The notes under the pieces are model-generated. The model worked only from the letters and a program-made list of their open reading frames with translations, was not told the origin of the DNA and ran no database searches. A stretch of DNA of 64,000 bases from an uncultured Chthonomonadaceae bacterium (lineage in GTDB: Bacteria; Armatimonadota; Chthonomonadetes; Chthonomonadales; Chthonomonadaceae): the NCBI GenBank assembly GCA_963835065.1, contig CAWIEK010000049.1, positions 288,001 through 352,000 on the forward strand, given 5' to 3'. The translations under genes and the position numbers were made by a program. Below, piece after piece: positions 176 to 53,306 of this stretch (its first letter is position 1; each line of letters opens with the position of its first letter).

Positions 176-694
176 TCATTCGTTTTGCGTAGATTCCAGT
201 ACGGATTCTGCCACATAAATGGGCGCTCGATACCGCAGCGCCATTGCGATAGCGTCACTTGGCCGCGCGTCAATGTCAATCACTTCTTCGCCGCGAGCGA
301 GCGTGATTTTCGCGTAGAATGTTTCCTGAAGCAGATCGTCTATGGTCACGCGCTCTACAGACGCTCCCAGGCGGTCCAGCATCGTTCGCATCAGATCGTG
401 CGTAAAGGGTCTGTCCGGGCGGTCTCCCTCAATCGCCATCGATATAGCCACGGCAACATCCCGCATAACGAAAATCTTGAACTCACGCCCATGATTGTCG
501 CGCATCAATACAAACGTCGTATTGTGCAGGGGATTGCCCGTATCCACCTCATATACATTGACGACCTTAACTTCTTTTTCGTTCAAAGCGCGTGAGGACC
601 TTGTCTCAGGCTGCCCGCCGGGCCCTTCGGACGCGCTGAAACTCTCGTCTTCCGGTCGCCAATCCCCAAACAAATCCCTAAAATCGTTGCCCAC
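176..694 (-). CDS. Bifunctional nuclease family protein (DUF151)
   Basis: RPFTHDLM, TFYAKI and IDARPSDAIAMALR motifs typical of DUF151/BFN. Confidence 0.9.
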   Translation of the reverse strand: MGNDFRDLFGDWRPEDESFSASEGPGGQPETRSSRALNEKEVKVVNVYEVDTGNPLHNTTFVLMRDNHGREFKIFVMRDVAVAISMAIEGDRPDRPFTHDLMRTMLDRLGASVERVTIDDLLQETFYAKITLARGEEVIDIDARPSDAIAMALRYRAPIYVAESVLESTQNE

Positions 695-7669: not shown

Positions 7670-9979
7670 GGCTTCCCTCCCTGTGGCGCAATGCTTGACG
7701 GCGCGACATTTTGCGGCGTAACATTCGGCGACATGCCTTGGGGCGCGGCGTTCGGCGCATCGCTCGTACTTTTCATTTGCATCACCACGCAGCCATGTTC
7801 GTTGAAAATCGGCGTCCACAAGCCCCGCTTGATGGCGTCGCCCATCAGTTGATGCCCCCGATCTCCCGCCGCGCCTGTGGTCAGGCCCTCCACATACCAC
7901 TTTTGCAGCGCATCAACTTCCACGCCGTTCGGCCCACCCGGAAAATCAGGGTCACGAGTTCGGCCCGTTGTTTTGCGCCGCCTGATTGAGATTTATCAAG
8001 GCGTATTCAATCCCGTGCCCGCGAAACCACACGGTCAGTTCCGCGCCGTTTTGCAGCGTTTCGTAAGGAATGTAGGACGAGTGCTGCTGATTAGCCCACA
8101 CATACAACCGATCCAGATAAAAGCCCCGCGTTTCATCCACAAGAGCGATACCGGCGCTTGGGGGAGTGTTCTGGTTAATCCATTGTTCGGCATCATAAGC
8201 GTCGAAGTGTCGGCGTAAATCCATGTCCCATGCCTGCGGCTGCGCCAGATTAGCGAACAGGGTCGGAACCGACACGCTGGAAGGCATTTGTCCCAATTGC
8301 GTCAACGCCCTGCGCTCATCCCCATTGGCGTTCATCGGCAGCGTACACACAGACAGCAGCACATAGCCAGCCTGCCCGAAAACAGCGACAATGCCCAATA
8401 CGCCCGGCACTTGGGCGAATGTCAGGCGTGGCAGGCGTTTCGCGCTACTACTGTCAGCATTACCGCTACTCTCCGTAAACACAAACCGACACGCGGCATA
8501 CGCGCCCACAATGGCAAACAAAGGCATTACCTGAATCAGATAACGCCCCACCTGCGACAATATAAACCACGCCAGAACCTGCCCCATGCCAAGCCACAGC
8601 AGACCGCGAACGGCAGGCGATATTCGACGGACAAACGCTAAGGGAAACACAAGCGCGGCGTACAATCCCCCAAACAACGCCGTAAAATTATATTCCCCCG
8701 GATTGCAGTACAGGACGCTCGATTTCACGTTCGGGCGCGTCAGCAAATGCCAGGGAACCTGTAGGATATTCAGCAGCTTGCTGCGAACATCCGGCGACAG
8801 AGGCTTAGTTCCGAACTTGTCCTGCTCCGATTGATAGGAAGCCGCGCGTTCCAGACTCCAATAACGGCTCTGCGGAAACGCTTTCGTCACAAACGGATAC
8901 ACGGGATTGCGCATCACAACGATGTTCTTCACGTACCAGGGCGACCCAATCGCCAGCGCAACACCGACAAACAACGCAGTCTTTCGGATTGGAACCCGCG
9001 TCAACAACAGCATGATCGTCATCAACCCGAACGGCACAAGCGCCAGATACTTCATCCCCAGCGCGAAGCCCATGAGCGCCCCGGAAAGGAGGAGAAGGGA
9101 ACAGGGAACAGGGAACAGGGAACAGGTATCTGCTTGTTTTGATAAAGGCGGTAATTGTACATCTTCTGTCTTCTGTCTTCTGTCTTCTGCGACCTCCCTG
9201 TTCCCTAACCCCGAAACAAGCGCAAAGGCGGCGAGCGTGGTGTACGTGGCGAGGCCGACATCTATGTACGCGACACTGCACTCCCACAGTACCATCGGGG
9301 TCGTGACGAACACGACGGACGCCAGCCAGCCGACAACAGGCCGCAATACCCGGCTGCAAAAGCCGATTATGCCCATCACAAGGAAGCCGGCTAACAGCAA
9401 ATGGAACAGATTGGAAAGCGCGTAGCCATTGTAAAGCAATCCTGCGGCGAAGAGCATTTCCAGGGTAAACGGAAAGTTGCTGTGATGCTCGGTAGGAAGG
9501 TTGGGAATACGATGCTGAAGCAGAAACAGCTTTGGATCGGCAAGATGATAGGAAAGCGCGTCCCATTCCAGCGGTCCCGGCGGACGAAAACAGGCGAGGA
9601 GCGCAATTAAGCCGAAAACAATCAGAAAAATTACGCAGGCGATAATCAGCCCCGTTTCCAAGCCCCACTTTGATGCCGATGCGACAGCAGCGTTACGCTT
9701 GCGCTGTCGCCAAGACTGAAAATCGCTGCCATAACCACGCCAACCACCCCACCCTGCCGCTGCCAGCGCCAGCCACCAACAAGTGACCGGCCAGAAAGAT
9801 AACAGTCCTGCCAGGCCGAGCGCGTACACGCCATAGGCGGCAATGCCCAGGCCAAGCGCCCCGCCATAAGCCAGGCGTTCCAAGGGCGCAAAGATGGGAA
9901 GATCAAGCCGATCCAGCAGCGCGCGTCCAACGGCAGCGGCAATGCAAGCAAATAGTATTATCAGCAACAGTGCAATCAT
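7666..9979 (-). CDS. GT-C-type (ArnT-like) polytopic membrane protein; apparent frameshift near 7957-7975
   Basis: WDALSYHLADPK, AYIDVG, GMKY, PWYVKN...NPVYPF. ORF 7952-9979 continues in another frame (RDPDFPGGPNGVEV...) to a TGA at 7666 that is coupled to the next gene. Confidence 0.75.
9096..9206. repeat. In-frame heptamer-repeat insertion: (AGGGAAC)4 ... (TCTTCTG)4 ... CCCTGTTCCCT
   Basis: Seen directly; translates as GNREVAEDRRQKTED...[10 protein letters not shown] within the membrane protein. Confidence 0.9.
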
Positions 9980-16832: not shown

Positions 16833-17687
16833 GTGAAATTCACGAAAATGCACGGTATCGGCAACGACTTTGTTGTTGTGAATACCTTAGCCGAAGTTTT
16901 AGAAGAAGCGCAGTACGCAGACAGCAGCCGTCGCCTGTGTCACCGGAAGTTCGGCGTGGGCGGGGATGGACTGCTCCTGGTTCTGCCATCCAAAGTCGCC
17001 GATTACAAAATGCGGATGTTCAATCCCGACGGCAGCGAAGCGGAAATGTGCGGCAACGGCATCCGGTGCTTTGCCAAGTATATTTATGACCGCAAAATGG
17101 CTTCGGATACGCAAGTCAAGGTGGAAACGCTTGCCGGCGTCAAGGTGCTGCGCCTGCTGCTCCGCGCCGGCAAAGTGGAAGCCGTCCGCGTAGATATGGG
17201 GCAACCCCTGCTATTGCGCTCAGAAATCCCTATGCGTGGCGACGACAATGGCCGCGTCATCGGCGAAGGCTTGAAAGTGGAAGGGCGCAAGTTCGATATT
17301 ACCGCTGTTTCTATGGGCAATCCGCACGTTATTATTTTTGAGGATCATGTGGAAGAGTTTCCCCTTACCAAATGGGGGCCGCTCATCGAAACGCACAAAG
17401 CCTTTCCCGAACGCGCCAACGTCCATTTCGCGCAGATTTACAATCAGGGAGAGATTCGAATACGGACGTGGGAACGAGGCGCGGGCGAAACTCTTGCCTG
17501 CGGCACGGGAGCCTGCGCCAGCGTGGTAGCCTGCGCGCTCAACAACAAAACCGGGCGCAATGTCCTTGTGCATTTGCCGGGCGGCGACCTGCGTATCGAA
17601 TGGATGGGCGACAACCGCGTCGTCATGACCGGCCCTGCCGAACAAGTCTTCGAAGGCGAGATAAATCTGGATGACCTCCACTTTTAG
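16833..17687 (+). CDS. dapF: Diaminopimelate epimerase
   Basis: KMHGIGNDF, EMCGNGIRC, MGNPH, WERGAGETLACGTG. Confidence 0.97.
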   Translation: MKFTKMHGIGNDFVVVNTLAEVLEEAQYADSSRRLCHRKFGVGGDGLLLVLPSKVADYKMRMFNPDGSEAEMCGNGIRCFAKYIYDRKMASDTQVKVETLAGVKVLRLLLRAGKVEAVRVDMGQPLLLRSEIPMRGDDNGRVIGEGLKVEGRKFDITAVSMGNPHVIIFEDHVEEFPLTKWGPLIETHKAFPERANVHFAQIYNQGEIRIRTWERGAGETLACGTGACASVVACALNNKTGRNVLVHLPGGDLRIEWMGDNRVVMTGPAEQVFEGEINLDDLHF

Positions 17688-17874
17688 ATTTTCGATTTTC
17701 GATTGCCGATTTCCGATTTCTGCTTATTCAAATGGCTATACTCCCTGCCTGAATAATGCAGCCAACCTGTTAGCGTGGAGCATCCAATGACAGAATCTAA
17801 CTCGCCTTCCGCCACGCATCCCCAATCGGCAATCGAAAATCAGCAATCGAAAATCGAAAATCGGCAATCGGCAA
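17682..17874. repeat. Inverted pair of CGATTTT/AATCGAA-type heptamer arrays
   Basis: Left arm 17682-17719 follows dapF; right arm 17823-17874 encodes QSAIENQQSKIENRQSAI at the FGGY kinase N-terminus. Confidence 0.85.
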
Positions 17875-20648: not shown

Positions 20649-22547
20649 ATGAAGCACGTCATTATTGGAACCGCCGGGCACGTAGATCACGGCAAAACCA
20701 CGCTGATTCAAGCGCTGACGGGAACCAATCCCGACCGGCTCAAAGAGGAGCAGGAGCGCGGCATGACCATTGACATTGGTTTCGCCTCGTTGCGCCTGCC
20801 GGACGGCACGATTGCGGGCATTGTGGACGTTCCCGGCCACGAACGGTTCCTCAAAAACATGCTGGCGGGCGCAAGCGGCGTGGACGTGGTACTGCTCGTG
20901 ATTGCCGCAGATGAAGGCGTAATGCCGCAGACTATCGAGCATCTGGACGTGCTGCGCCTGCTGGACGTGAAAAACGGCGTCGTCGCGCTGACTAAAATGG
21001 ACATGGCCGAAAAGGAATGGACGGATGTTGTCGAGGAAGATGTGCGCGAACATCTCAAAGACACCTTTCTGGCGCAGGCCCCGATCATTCGCGTTTCCGC
21101 CAAAACCGGCAAGGGACTGGAAGCCTTGAAAAAAGCGCTGATGGCCGCTGTCAGCCGCGCCGAAGCCCGCAATGCCGGCCTCCCCTTCCGCCTGCCCATT
21201 GACCGCGTGTTTACGCGCCCCGGTTTTGGAACGGTTGTTACCGGGACACTGGCCGCAGGTACAATTCGGACCGGGGATGCCGTTGAAATCGTGCCGCAGC
21301 GACTGAGCGCCCGTGTGCGTGGCCTGCAAGTGCATGGGCAAAAGGTCACGGAAGCGGAAGCGGGATCGCGGGTCGCCATCAATCTTGCGGGCGTGGACAA
21401 TGCCGACCTGGAACGAGGCGCGCAGGTCACGCCACCCCATGCCATTGCCCCTACCACCACATTCGACGCCACGCTGCGCCTGCTCCCCAATGTCGAAAAA
21501 CTGCTGGAGGATCGAGCGCGCGTCCGTCTGCACATGGGAACGGTGGAAGTGTTGGGACGTATCCGCATACTCGATACCAAATCCGAACTTGCGCCCGGAG
21601 AACGCGCTTTTGTGCAATTTCGGGGCGAAACGGAATTTGTCGCGGCGCGTGGAGATCGTTTCGTCGTTCGTTCCTACTCCCCGATGACGGTCATTGGCGG
21701 CGGCGTAGTGCTTGACGCGCACCCCACCCGGCATCGCAAGGCGGAAGCGGATACGTTGACCGCGCTGGAAGCCAAAGAGCGAGGTACGCCCGAAGACCTT
21801 ATAGACACATTACTGCTCAAATCCCCTACAGGCATTTTGCGCTCCGAAATCCCCCCGGCGACGGGACTGACGCCAGGAGAGACAGCCGCAGCTATAGAAG
21901 TTCTGTTAGCCGCAGACAAAGCCGTCCTGCTTCCGCATGAGCGTATCATCAACACCCTTGTACTTGTCGGCCTGACTCAGCGCGCGGAAGAAGCGGTTGA
22001 GCGGTTCCACAACCAGTTTCCGCTGCGTCCGGGAATGCCGCGCGAGGAATTACGCGCCGCTCTTGGACGAAACGTAGACAGCAAAGCCTTTGGTTCGCTG
22101 CTGTCGCGCTGGCACAAAGAGGATCGGTTTACTTCCGAAGGCGCATTTGTGCATCGGGCGGATTTTACCGTTCAGTTGACCGACAAACAGCAGCAGATGC
22201 TGAAGCGCATCGAAGAGGTTTATAAAGCCTGGGGTATTGCCGTTCCTGCCATTGAAGATGTTGCTAAAGAACTAAAAACGCCTGTGGACGCGATCACCTC
22301 CCTGCTGAAAGTCGGACAGGAACAAAAGCGCTTTGAAAAAATCGAAGATGGCATCTATTACCACGTAGATACCATTGCCGGTCTTCAGCAACTGTTACGC
22401 GCTTATCTCGCAGAACACGACAGCATCAGCGTAGGCGAATTCAGAGATTTAACAAGTTCCAACCGGCGCTACTCCCTGATGGCCCTGGAGTTTATGGACA
22501 CAATCCACTTCACCCGGCGGCAAGGCGATCAGCGAACCTTATACTGA
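20649..22547 (+). CDS. selB: Selenocysteine-specific translation elongation factor
   Basis: [39 protein letters not shown], and C-terminal winged helices (FRD...RRY). Confidence 0.96.
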
Positions 22548-22616: not shown

Positions 22617-22720
22617 TAAAACGTCCGATAATATTAAGCCATCCAGACGGCTTAATATCAAACGATTTTTAGGCGCGACGTACGTCGCGCCTAAAAATCG
22701 GGGCCGCGTCGCGGCCCCGA
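22617..22720. repeat. Composite palindromic element, copy 1
   Basis: TAAAACGTCCGATAAT (22617-22632), perfect 38-bp palindrome (22663-22700), and an 11-bp-arm GC hairpin (22698-22720). Confidence 0.9.
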
Positions 22721-23321: not shown

Positions 23322-24011
23322 TTAGTGCTTGACAACCGTCAACTTGTTATCTATCTTGTAGGACCCACCGGGCGATGCGGCTTTGGCGATTTCCTCGGCA
23401 TGCTTCTTCATCTCGTTGGTCTGCACCGTTCCCTTGAGGATGATGGTTTGTCCGTCGCTGCCGGTATCCACGTTGATGGAGTTCAAACCGGGGTTGGAGT
23501 TGGGATACAGCATGTCATCCTTCAGCAACGCATTCTTCACGGTGGGCGTGACCGTCACCACTTTGCCCGCATGCGTAGCCACCTCGCCCGCCTTTCCGAC
23601 GGCTTTGGCTGTGGCATCGGTAGCGTCCTCCGCGCCTTTTTTGACGGCGGCGCCCGCATTCTCCACTGCCGCGCCCGCATTTGCTACGCCCTTTTCAACG
23701 GTAGCGCCTGCGTTCGCAACGCCTTTTTCAACGGTGGCTCCCGCTTCCGCAGCGCCTTTCTGCACAGCCGCGCCCGCTTCCGCAGCGCCTTTTTCGACAG
23801 TGGCGCCCGCGTTCGCTACGCCCTTCTCAACTGCCGCGCCCGCTGCCTCCGTTCCCTTGACTGTCTTTACGGCGGCAGTGTCCGCCGCGTTTTTCACAGC
23901 GGCGGTGTCGTTAGCAGCATCCGCTTTCATGCCGTCCGACGTATTGGAACAGCCGACAATGCCTGTCCCGAATAATACGGCAGCGCTTGCCAATAGGAAT
24001 AGTCGCTTCAT
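23322..24011 (-). CDS. Lipoprotein with 11-aa tandem repeats and a C-terminal BON domain
   Basis: Lipobox IVGC; AGA(A/T)V(E/Q)KG(VAN/AAE) repeats; INVDT...ILKGTV...A..IA...IDNKL. Confidence 0.85.
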   Translation of the reverse strand: MKRLFLLASAAVLFGTGIVGCSNTSDGMKADAANDTAAVKNAADTAAVKTVKGTEAAGAAVEKGVANAGATVEKGAAEAGAAVQKGAAEAGATVEKGVANAGATVEKGVANAGAAVENAGAAVKKGAEDATDATAKAVGKAGEVATHAGKVVTVTPTVKNALLKDDMLYPNSNPGLNSINVDTGSDGQTIILKGTVQTNEMKKHAEEIAKAASPGGSYKIDNKLTVVKH

Positions 24012-36534: not shown

Positions 36535-39500
36535 TCAGCGTTCCGGGTCATAGTTCAGGTTGGGCGCGAGCCAGCGTTCTACCGTTGTCACTTCCATGCT
36601 CTTGCGCTTCGCGTAATCTTCCACTTGATCTTTTTCGATCTTGCCGACCGGGAAATACCGCGACGCGGGATGCTGAATGTAAAAGCCGGAGACGCTGCTT
36701 GCCGGGTGCATGGCGAAACTCTCGGTCAGGCAGATACCCGTCTTGTCTTCTACCGTCATCAGGTCGAAGAGCGTCCGTTTTTCCGTATGATCCGGGCAGG
36801 CGGGATAACCGGGCGCGGGACGAACGCCCCGATACCGCTCCTTGATTATGTCTTCCGTACTCAGGTTCTCGTGCCGCCCATATCCCCACTCGTCCCGAAC
36901 GATCTTATGCAGACGCTCCGCAAACGCTTCAGCCAATCTGTCCGCCAGCGCGTCCGCCATGATCGCGTTGTAATCGTCATGCTCCGCCTTGAACTTCGCC
37001 TTCAACTCGTCCACGCCGATTCCCGCCGTCACCGCAAACCCGCCAAAATGATCCGCCAGTCCCGTTTCCTTCGGCGCAATGTAATCAGCCAGGCACAAAT
37101 TTAGGGTGTTGGGTGTTGGGTGTTGGGTGTTGGGAATTGCGCTCTCCTCTTCTCCTTTTCTCCTTTTCTCCTTTTCTTCCTCTGTTCCCTGTTCCCTGTT
37201 CCCTGTTCCCTCTTTATCCATCTGCTGCCGCAGGAAGTGGAAGCGCGTCAGGACTTCGGAACGGGTTTCGTCCGTGTACAATTCCACGTCGTCGCCCACG
37301 CTGTTGGCGGGGAACAGGCCGTACACCGCCCGCGCCGTCAGCAGTTTGCCGGCTACGATCTGCTGAAGCAGCGCTCGCGCTTCCTCGTACAGTTTACGCG
37401 CCGTTTCGCCAACAACCGCGTCGTTCAGAATCGCCGGGAAGCGCCCGTGCAGTTCCCATGTATGGAAAAACGGCGTCCAGTCAATGTAGGGAACCAGTTC
37501 TTCCAGCGGGTAGTTATTCAGGACGCGAACGCCCGTAAATTCCGGCTGCGCCACATCTGCGGGCTTCCAGTCAATCGGCGTTCGGCGCTTCCGCGCTTCC
37601 GCAATCGGCAGCATCTTCTTTTCTTCGCGCCGATTCGCGTACTGCTCCCGCAAAACCTGCTGTTCCAGTTTGTTGCGCTCGATGTAATCCGGCTTCTGTT
37701 CCTCGCTTAACAGGGCGCTGACAACGCCCACCGCCCGCGACGCATCCAGCACATGTACCACTTCATGATTGTAGGAGGGCGCGATTTTGATGGCCGTATG
37801 CGCCCGGCTTGTTGTTGCGCCCCCAATCAGGAGGGGCACTTCAAACCCCCGCCGCTTCATCTCGCTCGCCACATGGATCATTTCATCCAGCGAGGGCGTA
37901 ATCAGGCCGCTCAAGCCGATAATGTCTACGTTCTCGTCCTGCGCCGTTTGCAGAATCTTTTCCGTCGAAACCATCACGCCCAGATCAATCACTTCGTAGT
38001 TGTTGCAGCCCAGCACGACGCCCACGATGTTCTTGCCGATGTCATGCACATCGCCCTTCACCGTCGCCATCAGAACCTTGCCCTGCGCCTTCACCTCGCC
38101 GCCGGACGCCCGCACCGCCGCCTTTTCCGCTTCCATAAAGGGCAGCAGCACGGCTACCGCTTTCTTCATCACCCGCGCCGATTTTACCACTTGCGGCAAA
38201 AACATCTTGCCTGCCCCGAATAAATCGCCCACAATGTTCATGCCGTCCATCAACGGCCCTTCAATCACGCTCAATGGACGGTCGTACTTCTGTCGCGCTT
38301 CCTCTACATCCGCTTCGATGTAATCGGTCACGCCCTTCACAAGCGCATGGGACAGCCGCGCCTCAACCGTTCCCAGCCGCCACTCTTCCTGCTCGGTCTT
38401 GTCCTTCTTTTTCTCGCCCTTCACCGTTTCCGCAAACGCAAGCAGGCGTTCGGTAGACTCGGCGCGGCGATTGAGAAGCACGTCCTCAACCAGTTCAAGC
38501 AAATCTTTCGGTATCTCATCGTAAACCGCCAACTGCCCCGCGTTGACAATACCCATATCCATGCCGGCCTGCACCGCATGGTACAGAAACGCGGCATGCA
38601 TGGCTTCGCGCACGGCATTGTTGCCCCGGAACGAAAACGAAATGTTGCTGACGCCGCCCGACACCTTTGCACCCGGCAAGTTCTGCTTGATCCAGCGCGT
38701 CGCTTCGATGAAGTCAACCGCGTAGTTGTTATGCTCTTCCAATCCCGTCGCAACCGTCAGGATGTTGGGATCGAAGATAATATCTTCTGCGGGAAAGCCA
38801 ATCTCTTCCGTAAGGATTTTGTACAGCCGTTCGCAAACCTCGATTTTGCGGGCGTAACTGTCCGCCTGCCCCTTCTCATCAAACGCCATCACAACCGCCG
38901 CCGCACCGTACTGCCGCACTAGCCGAGCCTGCTGCTTGAACGTTTCCAGATTCTCCTTTAGCGCCAGCGAGTTGACAATGCCCTTGCCCTGAATGCACTT
39001 CAGCCCCGCTTCAATCACGGCAAACTTGGAACTGTCAATCATAATCGGGACGCGCGAAATAGCGTCATCCGGCCCGACAAGATTGAGGAACGTGGTCATG
39101 GCCTGTTCGCCGTCCAGCAATCCCTCGTCCATGTTCACATCAATGATCTGCGCCCCATTTTCGACTTGCTGCCGCGCAACCGCCAGCGCTTCCTCATAAT
39201 TGCCCGCCAGAATCAGTTTGGCGAACTTGGGCGACCCGGTTACGTTCGTGCGCTCCCCAATGTTGACAAAGTTGGCATCCGGGCGCAGCGTTAAGGCTTC
39301 CAAACCGCTCAATCGCGTAAACGCGGGAACTTGAGGCGGAACGCGCGGCGCGTAATCTTTCACGATCTCAGCGACCCCGCGTATATAATCCGGCGTCGTG
39401 CCACAGCAGCCGCCCACGATATTCAGCCAGCCGTTCGCCGCCCAATCCCGAATAAACGGGAACATCTGCTCCGTCGTCAGGCTGAATCCCGATTCGGAAA

Positions 39501-43694: not shown

Positions 43695-45794
43695 TCACGC
43701 CCGCTTAAACTGCTTATCCAGTTCGTGAAACGGGATCGTCACCACAATTGGCCGGCCATGTGGACACAGGTACGGATTTTCCGTTTCCGCGAGTTGCTCC
43801 AGCAGTCCCTCCATCTCCGCCATCTCCATCGGATCGCCCGCTTTCACCGCCAGTTTACAGGCATTGGTAATCGTCACATGCTCCTGTTGCACCAGCAAAC
43901 GCCGTGACACGGTTTGATTTACCAGTTCATCAATCATATCTCGCAGGATTTTCTCATAAGGCTTGTGCGCCAGCATCGCCGGAACCGAGCGCACCACAAA
44001 ACTATCCTTGCCGAACGCGGAAATCTCCCACCCTGCCCGCGTGAAACTATCGCAATGTTCCGCCAGCAATAGCGCTTCTCGCCGCCCCAAATTGATGGTA
44101 ATCGGAACTGCCAGATGCTGCACCGGGATACCGTTCGCAAAACGCTTCACCGTCAGCCGCTCATACAAAACCCGTTCATGGGCAACATGCTGATCAATCA
44201 CGGCAATACCATTGGGCGTCAGCGCGATAATGTACGTATTCCGCGCCTGCCCAAGTACGCGAAACTCTCGCAACTGTTCCGCAAAAGGCTTTGGAACGGG
44301 CGGCGCTTGCAAAGGCTCCTCATCGGAAGAAACGGTACATGGGGTCAGCACATTGGCAACAGCAATGAAGTCACGAGACTCCGTAGAAATCACTGACTCA
44401 GAGGACGCAGAAGATAATCCGGCATTGGTATCATTATCCTCGCTCCCTGCCGCGCCTGCAATCGTTTGCGTCGATTCGGCTTGCGCCTCTTCATTCCTTG
44501 CGCCTTCCGGCATAGACGACGGCAACGGCTGCGGTTCTCTGTCTGATGCAGCAGTATCTATATCGGCAGCGTTCGGAGGATAGGTTTCTGGCGCGGCATG
44601 GGAGGTTTCCAAAGGCGCGAACGCGCCAATAGCGGCGGCAAACGCGCTTGCCGCGTCATGGAAGGGCGAGGCCGTTGTCGCATTCGGCATTGTGGAAGCG
44701 GAACTGCCCGCAGCAGAAGCGCCTCCAAACCCAAAATTGGTCTGCGAGGAAACCGGCGCAACGGGATTCGTCACCGTAATCCGCGCCTGTGGCACGATGC
44801 CGTATGCCAGCAACGCCCCCTTCACTGCCTGACTCGCCGCATGATGCACTTCGCCGTCCCGCGTAAACTTTACTTCCGTTTTTGTCGGATGCACGTTGAC
44901 ATCCACCAGGTCGGGATGTATTTCCACAAACAACGCACCGATAGGATACCGGCTGTCAGGCGTCAGGGACCGAAATGCCTCTTCCATCGCGTGGCCGATA
45001 AGCCGACTTTTGATAGGCCGCCTATTCACAAAGAACAACTCATGGGAACGTCCGGGACGCGAAATATCCGGCGTGGCAACAAAGCCCGACACGTTCAATC
45101 CCGGCGACTTGTGCGCAATAGGAATTAACTTACGCGCCACTTCCCGCCCCCACACCGCCGCCAGCGCCGCCAACGGCTCCCCTGTTCCCGGCGTGGCAAA
45201 TATCTCCTGCGTCCCATGCCGCAGGCGAAACGCGATTCCCGGATACGCAATCGCAAGTTGCCCCACAATCTCCATTGTACGGGCTACTTCCGTTGGCGTA
45301 CTCTTCAAGAACTTCATACGTGCCGGCGTGTTGAAGAACAGTTCGCTGACTTCAATCGTTGTGCCGTTCCGCGCCGCTACGTCTTCCACGCTTTGTATGT
45401 CGCCTGCCTGCACAATCAAGCGCGTACCGCTTTCGTCCTCCGGCGGTTTGGTAGTGATCGTCAGACGTGATACCGAAGCAATGGAAGGCATCGCTTCGCC
45501 GCGAAAACCCAATGTTTTAATCGCAAACAGATCGTCTGCCGTTCGGATTTTACTCGTAGCATGGCGCTGTAAGGCAAGAATGGCATCCGAGCGCGTCATG
45601 CCGAAGCCGTTATCCGCCACGATCAAACTCTGCTTGCCCCCCTCTTCCAGCGCAATGACGATCTGCGTTGCCCCCGCGTCTATCGCATTCTCTACCAATT
45701 CCTTCACGGCGGAAGCAGGCCGTTCCACAACTTCGCCCGCCGCAATCTGATTAGCCGTATTTTCATCCAGCAGCACCACGCGATCTATTGCCAT
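43695..45794 (-). CDS. mutL: DNA mismatch repair endonuclease MutL
   Basis: NQIAAGEVVERP, GFRGEA, DVNVHPTK, DQHVAHER, ACK, CPHGRP. Confidence 0.98.
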   Translation of the reverse strand: MAIDRVVLLDENTANQIAAGEVVERPASAVKELVENAIDAGATQIVIALEEGGKQSLIVADNGFGMTRSDAILALQRHATSKIRTADDLFAIKTLGFRGEAMPSIASVSRLTITTKPPEDESGTRLIVQAGDIQSVEDVAARNGTTIEVSELFFNTPARMKFLKSTPTEVARTMEIVGQLAIAYPGIAFRLRHGTQEIFATPGTGEPLAALAAVWGREVARKLIPIAHKSPGLNVSGFVATPDISRPGRSHELFFVNRRPIKSRLIGHAMEEAFRSLTPDSRYPIGALFVEIHPDLVDVNVHPTKTEVKFTRDGEVHHAASQAVKGALLAYGIVPQARITVTNPVAPVSSQTNFGFGGASAAGSSASTMPNATTASPFHDAASAFAAAIGAFAPLETSHAAPETYPPNAADIDTAASDREPQPLPSSMPEGARNEEAQAESTQTIAGAAGSEDNDTNAGLSSASSESVISTESRDFIAVANVLTPCTVSSDEEPLQAPPVPKPFAEQLREFRVLGQARNTYIIALTPNGIAVIDQHVAHERVLYERLTVKRFANGIPVQHLAVPITINLGRREALLLAEHCDSFTRAGWEISAFGKDSFVVRSVPAMLAHKPYEKILRDMIDELVNQTVSRRLLVQQEHVTITNACKLAVKAGDPMEMAEMEGLLEQLAETENPYLCPHGRPIVVTIPFHELDKQFKRA

Positions 45795-46033
45795 AGCAAA
45801 CCCCATTCTTACCCATTGGCCGTAACTGGCAGAGTAATGCAGCCTAATTACAAGAACCGGCCTCTCAACACCCAACACCTAATACCCAACACCCACAAAC
45901 GAATAACGTAGACAGAAACTAACTACACCCTACAATAACCATACCCTAAATCCGCACATTTCGCATAGACCAACAGGAGAGTTGCTTAAGAACCTCTTCC
46001 TATCCTTACAGGAAAAGCCCAATTTTCACCGCA

Positions 46034-46141
46034 TAAAACGTCCGATAATGTAGTCGGCTCAGATCAGAAGAACAACATACCAATTTTTTGTGGAGCGCGT
46101 ACGCGCTCCACAAAAAATTGCGGGCCGCGACGCGGCCCGCA
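46034..46141. repeat. Composite palindromic element, copy 2
   Basis: TAAAACGTCCGATAAT (46034-46049), perfect 40-bp palindrome (46081-46120), and an 11-bp-arm GC hairpin (46119-46141). Confidence 0.9.
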
Positions 46142-46167: not shown

Positions 46168-46539
46168 TCACAACAACGATTCGCACAGAATGGTATCCTC
46201 ATCCGTGTACGCGGGAACACAGCAGCACAGAAATACTAGGGGTTCCTGCCCCGTATTCCGTATCTGATGCCGCTTTCCCGCAGGAATACAGATGCCATCC
46301 CCTACAGTCACCGAACGCTGTTCCGCTTCAATTGCCATCACGCCACTTCCATGCAGGATGTAATACAGCTCCTCCGTATTAGGGTGCGAATGTGCCTGCG
46401 TAGTCGCGCCGGCCTCTATTGTCGCTTCGGCAAGACTCTGGCGCTGCGTTTCTGAATTACGCGGCGCCAGTATCTCCCGAATAATCGAGGTATCTTTGGT
46501 CGTAAACGCATGTACTTCATTGCGATTTACAACATCCAT
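46168..46539 (-). CDS. Cupin domain protein
   Basis: HSHPNTEELYYIL and IPAGKRHQIRN motifs. Confidence 0.9.
   Translation of the reverse strand: MDVVNRNEVHAFTTKDTSIIREILAPRNSETQRQSLAEATIEAGATTQAHSHPNTEELYYILHGSGVMAIEAEQRSVTVGDGICIPAGKRHQIRNTGQEPLVFLCCCVPAYTDEDTILCESLL

Positions 46540-50078: not shown

Positions 50079-53306
<3,228 letters not shown>

Follow-up and report, generated by a model that had tools for sequence, protein, structure and literature searches.

What might an identical 16-nucleotide sequence be doing ahead of two perfect but differently composed palindromes that stand some 23 kb apart between bacterial genes? The question is raised by the window, a 64,000-nucleotide stretch on contig C49 of a Chthonomonadaceae genome (G000, with an assembly 92% complete), which we analysed together with the rest of that genome and with its relatives (numbered G001, G002 and so on).

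The initial annotation had described the 16-mer, TAAAACGTCCGATAAT, as identical in both copies and in the same orientation, each time followed by an unrelated gap, a perfect palindrome and a second hairpin beside the stop of a minus-strand gene, and every one of these components was recovered. The two 16-mers (Table 1) lie on the plus strand with 23,417 bp between them; the gap in copy 2 is 31 nt long (46050-46080), the palindromes have arms of 20 bp (copy 2) and 19 bp (copy 1), and the second hairpins have arms of 11 bp around a 1-nt centre and overlap the palindromes by 2-3 nt. Minus-strand ORFs terminate at 46168 and 22785, beside the copies, and copy 1 additionally lies downstream of the plus-strand selB stop. 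Conservation of the 16-mer proved narrower than its length, with a core of ACGTCCGATAA(T) and a TAAA flank that is merely A-rich.

A dif half-site joined to two DNA hairpins

The 16-mer contains a dif half-site, the XerC-type arm, which the initial annotation had missed. In relatives with a single match, the motif is followed by six bases and then by TTATGT, i.e., the canonical dif layout, and in the window's own genome the match at C49:287325 on the plus strand, about 0.7 kb ahead of window base 1, continues with the centre TACAAG and then GTATG, scoring 41.7 bits as a full dif, with the next best site in that genome at 15.3. As a result of this layout in relatives and of this best full match, we identify the motif as the XerC-type arm of dif. 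The label XerC for the arm opposite TTATG follows the convention for E. coli and V. cholerae, as given in excerpts of PMC9226527.

The position of dif coincides with both the GC-skew switch and the KOPS switch of the genome. Cumulative GC skew is maximal at C49 286,902 and at C16 130,402, the two places where the exact 12-mer ACGTCCGATAAT is clustered (seven occurrences in the genome, five on C49 and two on C16), and KOPS (GGGNAGGG) converge on C49:287 kb, with 74 leading against 17 lagging. Elsewhere in the genome the arm is scarce, at 17 matches vs 82 for a reversed control. The gap between dif and the gene encoding a bifunctional nuclease (BFN), at C49 ~287455-287506, holds a GGGGG run, a CCGTTG..CAACGG hairpin and a GAACCYGGG inverted repeat, and the same motifs are conserved in many genomes of the family (loci L040, L128, L130, L135, L141 and L144); they may serve as 3' signals of BFN or as accessory sequences of dif.

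We refer to the whole element, about 100 bases of XerC-type arm, 6-nt centre, variable spacer without an XerD arm, perfect palindrome (hp1) and usually a second hairpin (hp2), as a composite. The chromosome of the window's genome carries four composites, two on each side of dif, in addition to a pair at the second skew switch; those in the window follow dif on its right, at 23 and 47 kb.

Table 1. Positions of the composites, their neighbours and related features (window coordinates unless a contig is given)
Feature	Position	Strand	Remark
Bifunctional nuclease gene (BFN/DUF151)	176..694	-	3' end towards dif, which is located shortly before window base 1
selB	20649..22547	+	dif-proximal anchor of copy 1, as in 7 relatives
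Copy 1 16-mer	22617..22632	+	
Copy 1 XerC-type arm	22621..22631	+	centre TATTAA at 22632-22637
Copy 1 hp1 (22663-22700) and hp2 (22698-22720)	22663..22720	.	one breakpoint of the G000/G002 inversion
mutL	43695..45794	-	dif-proximal anchor of copy 2, as in at least 4 relatives
Copy 2 16-mer	46034..46049	+	
Copy 2 XerC-type arm ACGTCCGATAA	46038..46048	+	identical to the arm of dif at C49:287325; A-rich flank 46034-46037
Copy 2 central region TGTAGT	46049..46054	+	6 nt
Copy 2 variable spacer	46055..46080	+	in the place of the XerD arm; no TTATG/GTATG
Copy 2 hp1	46081..46120	.	zero-loop perfect palindrome: T-run, GC-rich arm, S-N-W/W-N-S centre (CGTACG), A-run
Copy 2 hp2	46119..46141	.	GC hairpin GGCCGC-NNN-GCGGCC; with adjoining T-run terminator-like on the minus strand
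Small cupin-fold ORF	46168..46539	-	distal neighbour of copy 2, reads towards hp2; weak cupin-family matches only
12-mer on C49	259754, 270006, 287325, 310621, 334038	-, -, +, +, +	287325 is dif
12-mer on C16	130480, 132825	-, +	
XerD of the window's genome	C49:579236-580219		homologues L302-L351

In 100 block-shuffled windows, the longest perfect arm arising by chance was 6-11 bp, and the folding of the DNA gave a z-score of -7.35, with 0 of 200 shuffles equally stable. A strain from an independent run (X1), about 94-96% identical over its two contigs, carries the element with seven substitutions in the spacer (46053 to 46078) and with hp1 and hp2 unchanged; it also has one extra A at the border of arm and centre, which comes from a single contig, and since its two contigs overlap at 46101-46115, no single one spans the palindrome. 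The spacer is unconstrained. With this independent run, 23 carrier genomes and metagenome contigs, we ruled out an assembly artefact. A small-RNA promoter, considered for a GATAAT resembling a -10 box, was likewise rejected, since the sequence upstream is not conserved, no promoter was called there and hp2 is not followed by a U-tract when read that way. Searches of 10 loci against Rfam gave no match at gathering score, and the window gave only sub-threshold ones.

Within the family, 23 of 42 Chthonomonadaceae genomes, representing 14 of 23 genera, contained a total of 55 composites, whose perfect arms comprise 54 distinct sequences; two sister families had none (0/24 and 0/2 genomes). A scan of one genome per species retrieved 44 loci, 28 of them true composites, all from Chthonomonadaceae or Chthonomonadales, and the other 16 without hp1. 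When the hairpin pattern was searched without the arm in 301 genomes of the phylum, true matches fell only at loci of the family (those of four genomes; G001, G022, G023), with a pattern strict enough to miss G000's own copies.

The palindromes are kept despite turnover of their sequence. In hp1, all 1085 of 1085 positions pair across the 55 copies, which had been admitted only with a perfect arm no shorter than 12 bp; a relaxed search added just 2 imperfect copies among 82 other sites, and a metagenome scan in which the palindrome was not required returned 80 loci, namely 37 perfect composites, 1 near-perfect one, 2 unrelated near-matches and 40 non-matches. The arms vary in sequence and in length (14-24 bp), and yet the innermost base is A or T in 54 of the 55, and all 55 close the loop with G-C or C-G as the third pair. 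G-U pairs are absent from hp1, whereas the control terminator-like hairpins of the window's genome carry 0.59 of them per 10 bp and are perfect and zero-looped in only 4 of 263 cases. We infer that the structure of hp1 is selected, or corrected, at the level of DNA. Its distance from the XerC-type arm ranges from 22 to 51 nt with no clear helical phasing. The XerD arm (TTATG/GTATG...) is lacking in the composites, the spacer in its place is not conserved, and a single hybrid of dif and hairpins was found, in G001. The dif of that genome (L218, C2:1218386) bears both hairpins and stands flipped with respect to BFN, and in another genome, at locus L085, a composite takes the place beside BFN that dif usually fills.

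Polarity around dif and a putative terminus gate

Replication polarity, one of two explanations initially offered for the shared orientation of the copies, is supported, as the copies gather at the GC-skew maxima and their orientation flips at dif. In the 14 terminus stretches with a located dif (1.06 Mb), all 52 of 52 non-dif GTCCGATAA arms, 23 with hp1 and 29 without, face away from dif; by chance, about 8 such 9-mers would be expected in those stretches, half of them inward. The composites lie 10-62 kb from dif on both sides and do not form a single site at the skew or KOPS switch. In G013, all 24 arm matches on the chromosome contig flip at dif (C1:2.65-4.27 Mb, a KOPS-like polarity over 1.6 Mb), and the 120 kb examined around dif hold 12 polar arms, all within 60 kb of it, and not one hp1, so that genome can do without the hairpins. 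Far from dif, 2 of 11 arms on the G001 chromosome and 4 of 15 on that of G005 face inward, with the origin assumed to be opposite dif, and inward pairs occur on small contigs (G017 C139 and two of G013). In G005, ATG replaces ACG in the dif arm and in the composite arm alike, i.e., the two changed together.

The sites are located at the termini of secondary replicons as well as chromosomes. Outward pairs also bracket the skew switch of contigs C16 of G000 (one typical composite and one with a long spacer), C3 of G001 (two composites) and C1 of G001 (two bare arms), and neither C16 nor G001 C3 has a full dif between its two composites. A plasmid-type tyrosine recombinase (a PF00589 match) adjoins a ParA-like ORF at C16:76925-82461, labels that come partly from inspection of the sequence, which suggests that C16 is part of a secondary replicon. 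The idea that secondary replicons have no full dif at all was weakened by two full dif-like sites on G001 C3, 80-110 kb from the composites. Sites of this type with the centre GCGCAC occur both on the G001 chromosome (L214, C2:414064) and on its 326-kb contig (L221, C3:117667), far from the skew switches, and are possibly dif sites of mobile elements or plasmids.

Polar sites in mirror orientation that bracket the terminus, also on secondary replicons, are likewise found in the Tus-Ter and RTP-Ter fork traps in the descriptions excerpted from PMC10331603. Here, in contrast, a search of the 92% complete G000 found no match to Tus or RTP, the protein site is the dif arm, and DNA structure is part of the site. 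Replication-linked GC skew at fourfold sites is weaker inside the inner pair in four of five composite genomes and reversed in G023, three of the five being congeners. As a sign of a fork trap this is weak; free fusion of forks predicts the same pattern.

The reading we favour, tentatively and on the strength of sequence comparisons, is that the outward-facing half-sites and their DNA-hairpin module bracket the replication terminus as a putative polar gate, formed of Xer and hairpins, for FtsK and for replication forks. XerC would occupy the half-site, probably with XerD loaded alongside without an arm of its own; inbound motors would meet the inner face of the recombinase and pass, and outbound ones would meet its outer face and stop, a one-way passage that would keep the final stages of chromosome replication and separation confined. 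Once a fork or helicase exposes single-stranded DNA, hp1 and hp2 may fold and reinforce the stop, and hp2 with its T-run would additionally end transcripts entering the site. The arms are arranged accordingly in space, with the inner face towards inbound motors on both replichores, the outer face towards outbound ones and no inward arms near dif.

In E. coli, as described in excerpts of PMC2800217, a lone XerD bound to a dif half-site is about 5-fold more effective at stopping FtsK that reaches its outer face than FtsK that reaches its inner face. In that assay, per the same excerpts, XerC alone gave no block and only XerD blocked, so a gate of the kind favoured here needs tighter binding by XerC or help from XerD. 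FtsK is also reported there to displace DNA junctions, and the hairpins are therefore unlikely to stop FtsK themselves. It could also be argued against a gate that the sites serve some other purpose and that outward is just the orientation in which they are tolerated.

XerC and XerD are both encoded in the window's genome, as is ftsK, which is frameshifted in the assembly (C71:36.7-39.3 kb); proS (C49:257.7-259.4 kb) looks frameshifted as well, and assembly indels are the likely cause in both.

Rearrangement joints and possible Xer recombination

Rearrangement joints lie at the sites. A 40-kb segment of G000 between the composites at 270006 (minus) and 310621 (plus) appears in G002 as an exact inversion whose two ends fall in element-bearing gaps. 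When 16 contigs were compared with G000, gene order broke at 17 of 30 site-bearing intervals vs 12 of 311 site-free ones, and by type of site at 15 of 18 hairpin-bearing, 1 of 9 dif-only and 1 of 3 bare-arm intervals, counts that are not independent, since events are shared, G000 is the one reference and a break includes jumps of more than 9 kb that may be deletions. Copies of one genome share the same palindrome centre in 0.69 of pairs, compared with 0.25 in the same genus and 0.21 in other genera (41 copies), and this homogenisation spans the arm through hp1 and spares the flanks.

Such data bring up the possibility, in our view rather unlikely, that the composites are catalytically active auxiliary Xer sites, in which XerC cuts at the border of arm and centre, XerD binds with relaxed specificity and the hairpins are accessory. 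Such sites would serve as a reserve for dif, take its place at plasmid termini and occasionally recombine with an inverted copy. The exact inversion, the excess of breaks at hairpin-bearing intervals and the within-genome homogenisation all agree with this, as do the two skew switches with composites and no full dif between them, and the would-be XerD side always lies towards inbound FtsK. The centre begins with T[G/A]T in 49 of 55 composites, compared with 29 of 62 half-only sites and 10 of 44 difs, many of the 62 bare arms having come from a pattern that required the first T. With chromosomal dif the composites share the identical XerC-type arm, a 6-nt centre, the terminus location and KOPS convergence; unlike dif, they have no XerD arm, occur in several copies, are inverted as mirror images on the two replichores and carry the hairpin module.

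TLC-phi attP and difGGI, which are IMEX sites with a degenerate XerD arm, are alike in having an intact XerC arm and centre with a divergent XerD arm, and they recombine in that form. The composites are instead resident among core genes, mirror-symmetric and free of cargo, and DUF3653, presumably the XafT family, was found in 0 of 42 family genomes. Moreover, excerpts of PMC9226527 indicate that FtsK-driven recombination in Vibrio requires a near-consensus XerD arm. The junctions that involve dif (G001, G015, G023) lie on its XerD side, away from the XerC cut point, so the data give no crossover at that point; among composites, the crossover cannot be located because the copies have diverged or been homogenised. 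Their centres differ between copies, the full dif-like sites on G001 C3 speak against a replaced dif, and fragility of the palindromes with SbcD, present in 5 of 5 genomes checked, could yield the same breakpoints without Xer catalysis. Under the gate that we favour, the inversions and within-genome homogenisation would be by-products of occasional breakage or of ectopic strand exchange between inverted copies.

The altered XerD of the family would suit recombination at such sites. It carries a basic insertion of 20-35 residues just ahead of the helix that aligns with E. coli MTRQTFW, often containing RGR/GRP, which we take to resemble an AT-hook, and the Trp of the RQxxW helix is lost (present in 0 of 37 vs 9 of 9 in sister families) with the catalytic motifs retained. 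Each of the 22 composite genomes that yielded an XerD has the insertion, and as it also occurs in 10 of 15 family genomes without composites, it is not diagnostic; a quick XerD tree, with 8 rows left out, gives 6 changes for the trait. Clustering of the neighbours of xerD for a partner protein returned only shadow ORFs.

Terminator-like features, remaining readings and known systems

Terminator function, the other initial explanation, is partly supported. On the minus strand, hp2 and its T-run are predicted to act as an intrinsic terminator, a GC stem and then a U-tract past the end of a gene, for transcription running in the direction of dif, and in 35 of the 41 copies that could be called the distal gene is oriented into hp2. 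On the other hand, hp2 receives no incoming gene in 6 of 41 intact copies, and the lack of G-U pairs sets hp1 apart. The dif-proximal neighbours are conserved (selB, mutL, purine nucleoside phosphorylase, enoyl reductase and HAD phosphatase), and the distal neighbour varies between genomes.

These features fit a further reading, which we consider unlikely, in which the half-sites are landmarks akin to XDS, the study of which is reportedly Karaboja 2021: bound Xer would unload SMC before dif, hp2 with its T-run would be a protecting intrinsic terminator and the symmetry of hp1 would arise via template switching. In excerpts of PMC9226527, PMC11840125 and PMC11894783, B. subtilis XerD unloads SMC at extra dif-like sites near the terminus, and such partial dif sites are likewise scattered around it. 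The terminator-like match, the hairpin-less polar arrays and an SMC hinge in 37 of 42 family genomes are in keeping with this; SMC was not found in the incomplete assembly of the window's own genome. However, the XDS of Bacillus subtilis and Staphylococcus aureus consist, according to PMC9226527, of a bona fide XerD arm and five inner bp of the second, whereas the Chthonomonadaceae element keeps an XerC-type arm, is strictly polar and has two hairpins, a distinction drawn from partial descriptions in papers that cite the XDS work. Nor does such a reading explain the fixed anatomy of hp1, the six copies without an incoming gene or the breakpoints.

The perfect zero-loop palindromes with a genome-specific 6-bp centre, along with the joints at the sites, could also suggest that hp1 is a target of the telomere-resolution type, cut and hairpinned at its axis by a tyrosine recombinase, possibly the modified XerD, for emergency unlinking. 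Protelomerase targets (N15 telRL and those of ResT and TelA) are, like hp1, perfect palindromes with a self-complementary 6-bp centre. We regard this reading as very improbable: a search of G000 for a ResT/TelK telomere resolvase domain (PF16684) gave a best E of 0.8, cutting at four sites would excise core genes (rho, mutL), the element is coupled to a dif arm, and hp1 arms vary so much in length and sequence that there is no fixed recognition site for a resolvase. Least probable of all are relics of dif-integrating elements (IMEX) or of a MITE, for although an XerC arm with a non-canonical XerD arm resembles an attachment junction and the hairpins recall signals of ssDNA phages, copies flanking dif on its XerC side stand in inverted, not direct, orientation to it, a polarity that largely refutes the idea, the neighbours are core genes at conserved anchors with no mobile cargo, 0 of 28 viral pattern matches carry the module and the copies are confined to termini.

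By its features the element does not qualify as dif (it has no XerD arm), XDS (it has the opposite arm), Tus/RTP-Ter (neither protein was found in G000), a protelomerase target or an IMEX relic; it works most like a cross between XDS and Ter. We found no description of it in the full-text literature, in a search that left out most subscription papers, and it is a real, conserved and apparently undescribed cis-element of the terminus. We regard it as a variant of accessory Xer sites, and there is a fair chance that it represents a new kind of fork trap or resolution site. A more ambitious proposal, possible but doubtful, is a new terminus machine in which Xer on polar half-sites and folded hairpins form a fork trap free of Tus and RTP, or a different site of unlinking, which works at plasmid termini as well, uses the lineage-specific XerD with its basic, AT-hook-like insertion and shuffles blocks of terminus genes like a shufflon on an evolutionary scale.

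Most bacteria are thought to be without a fork trap, and how termination and final unlinking are confined is open, according to excerpts of PMC10331603. The element would be a third design of terminus organisation next to Tus/RTP-Ter and XDS/matS, and the rearrangements of the terminus break repeatedly at defined cis-elements. Because the site is small, clonable and strictly polar, with a protein partner predicted from its sequence, fork arrest, FtsK gating, SMC unloading and Xer recombination are each directly testable.

Perfect palindromes with an arm of at least 12 bp and a loop of 0-1 nt number 53 across the window's genome, many of them terminator-like, although sbcD is present. Within the window, a 33-nt repeat array (an 11-residue repeat) lies at 23572-23858 inside a minus-strand lipoprotein-like ORF, and intergenic tandem repeats of heptamers, of the types GGGAACA, CAACACC and AATCGAA and frequently in inverted pairs, occur at 9096-9125, 17682-17862, 37104-37212, 45863-45894 and 51092-51201.
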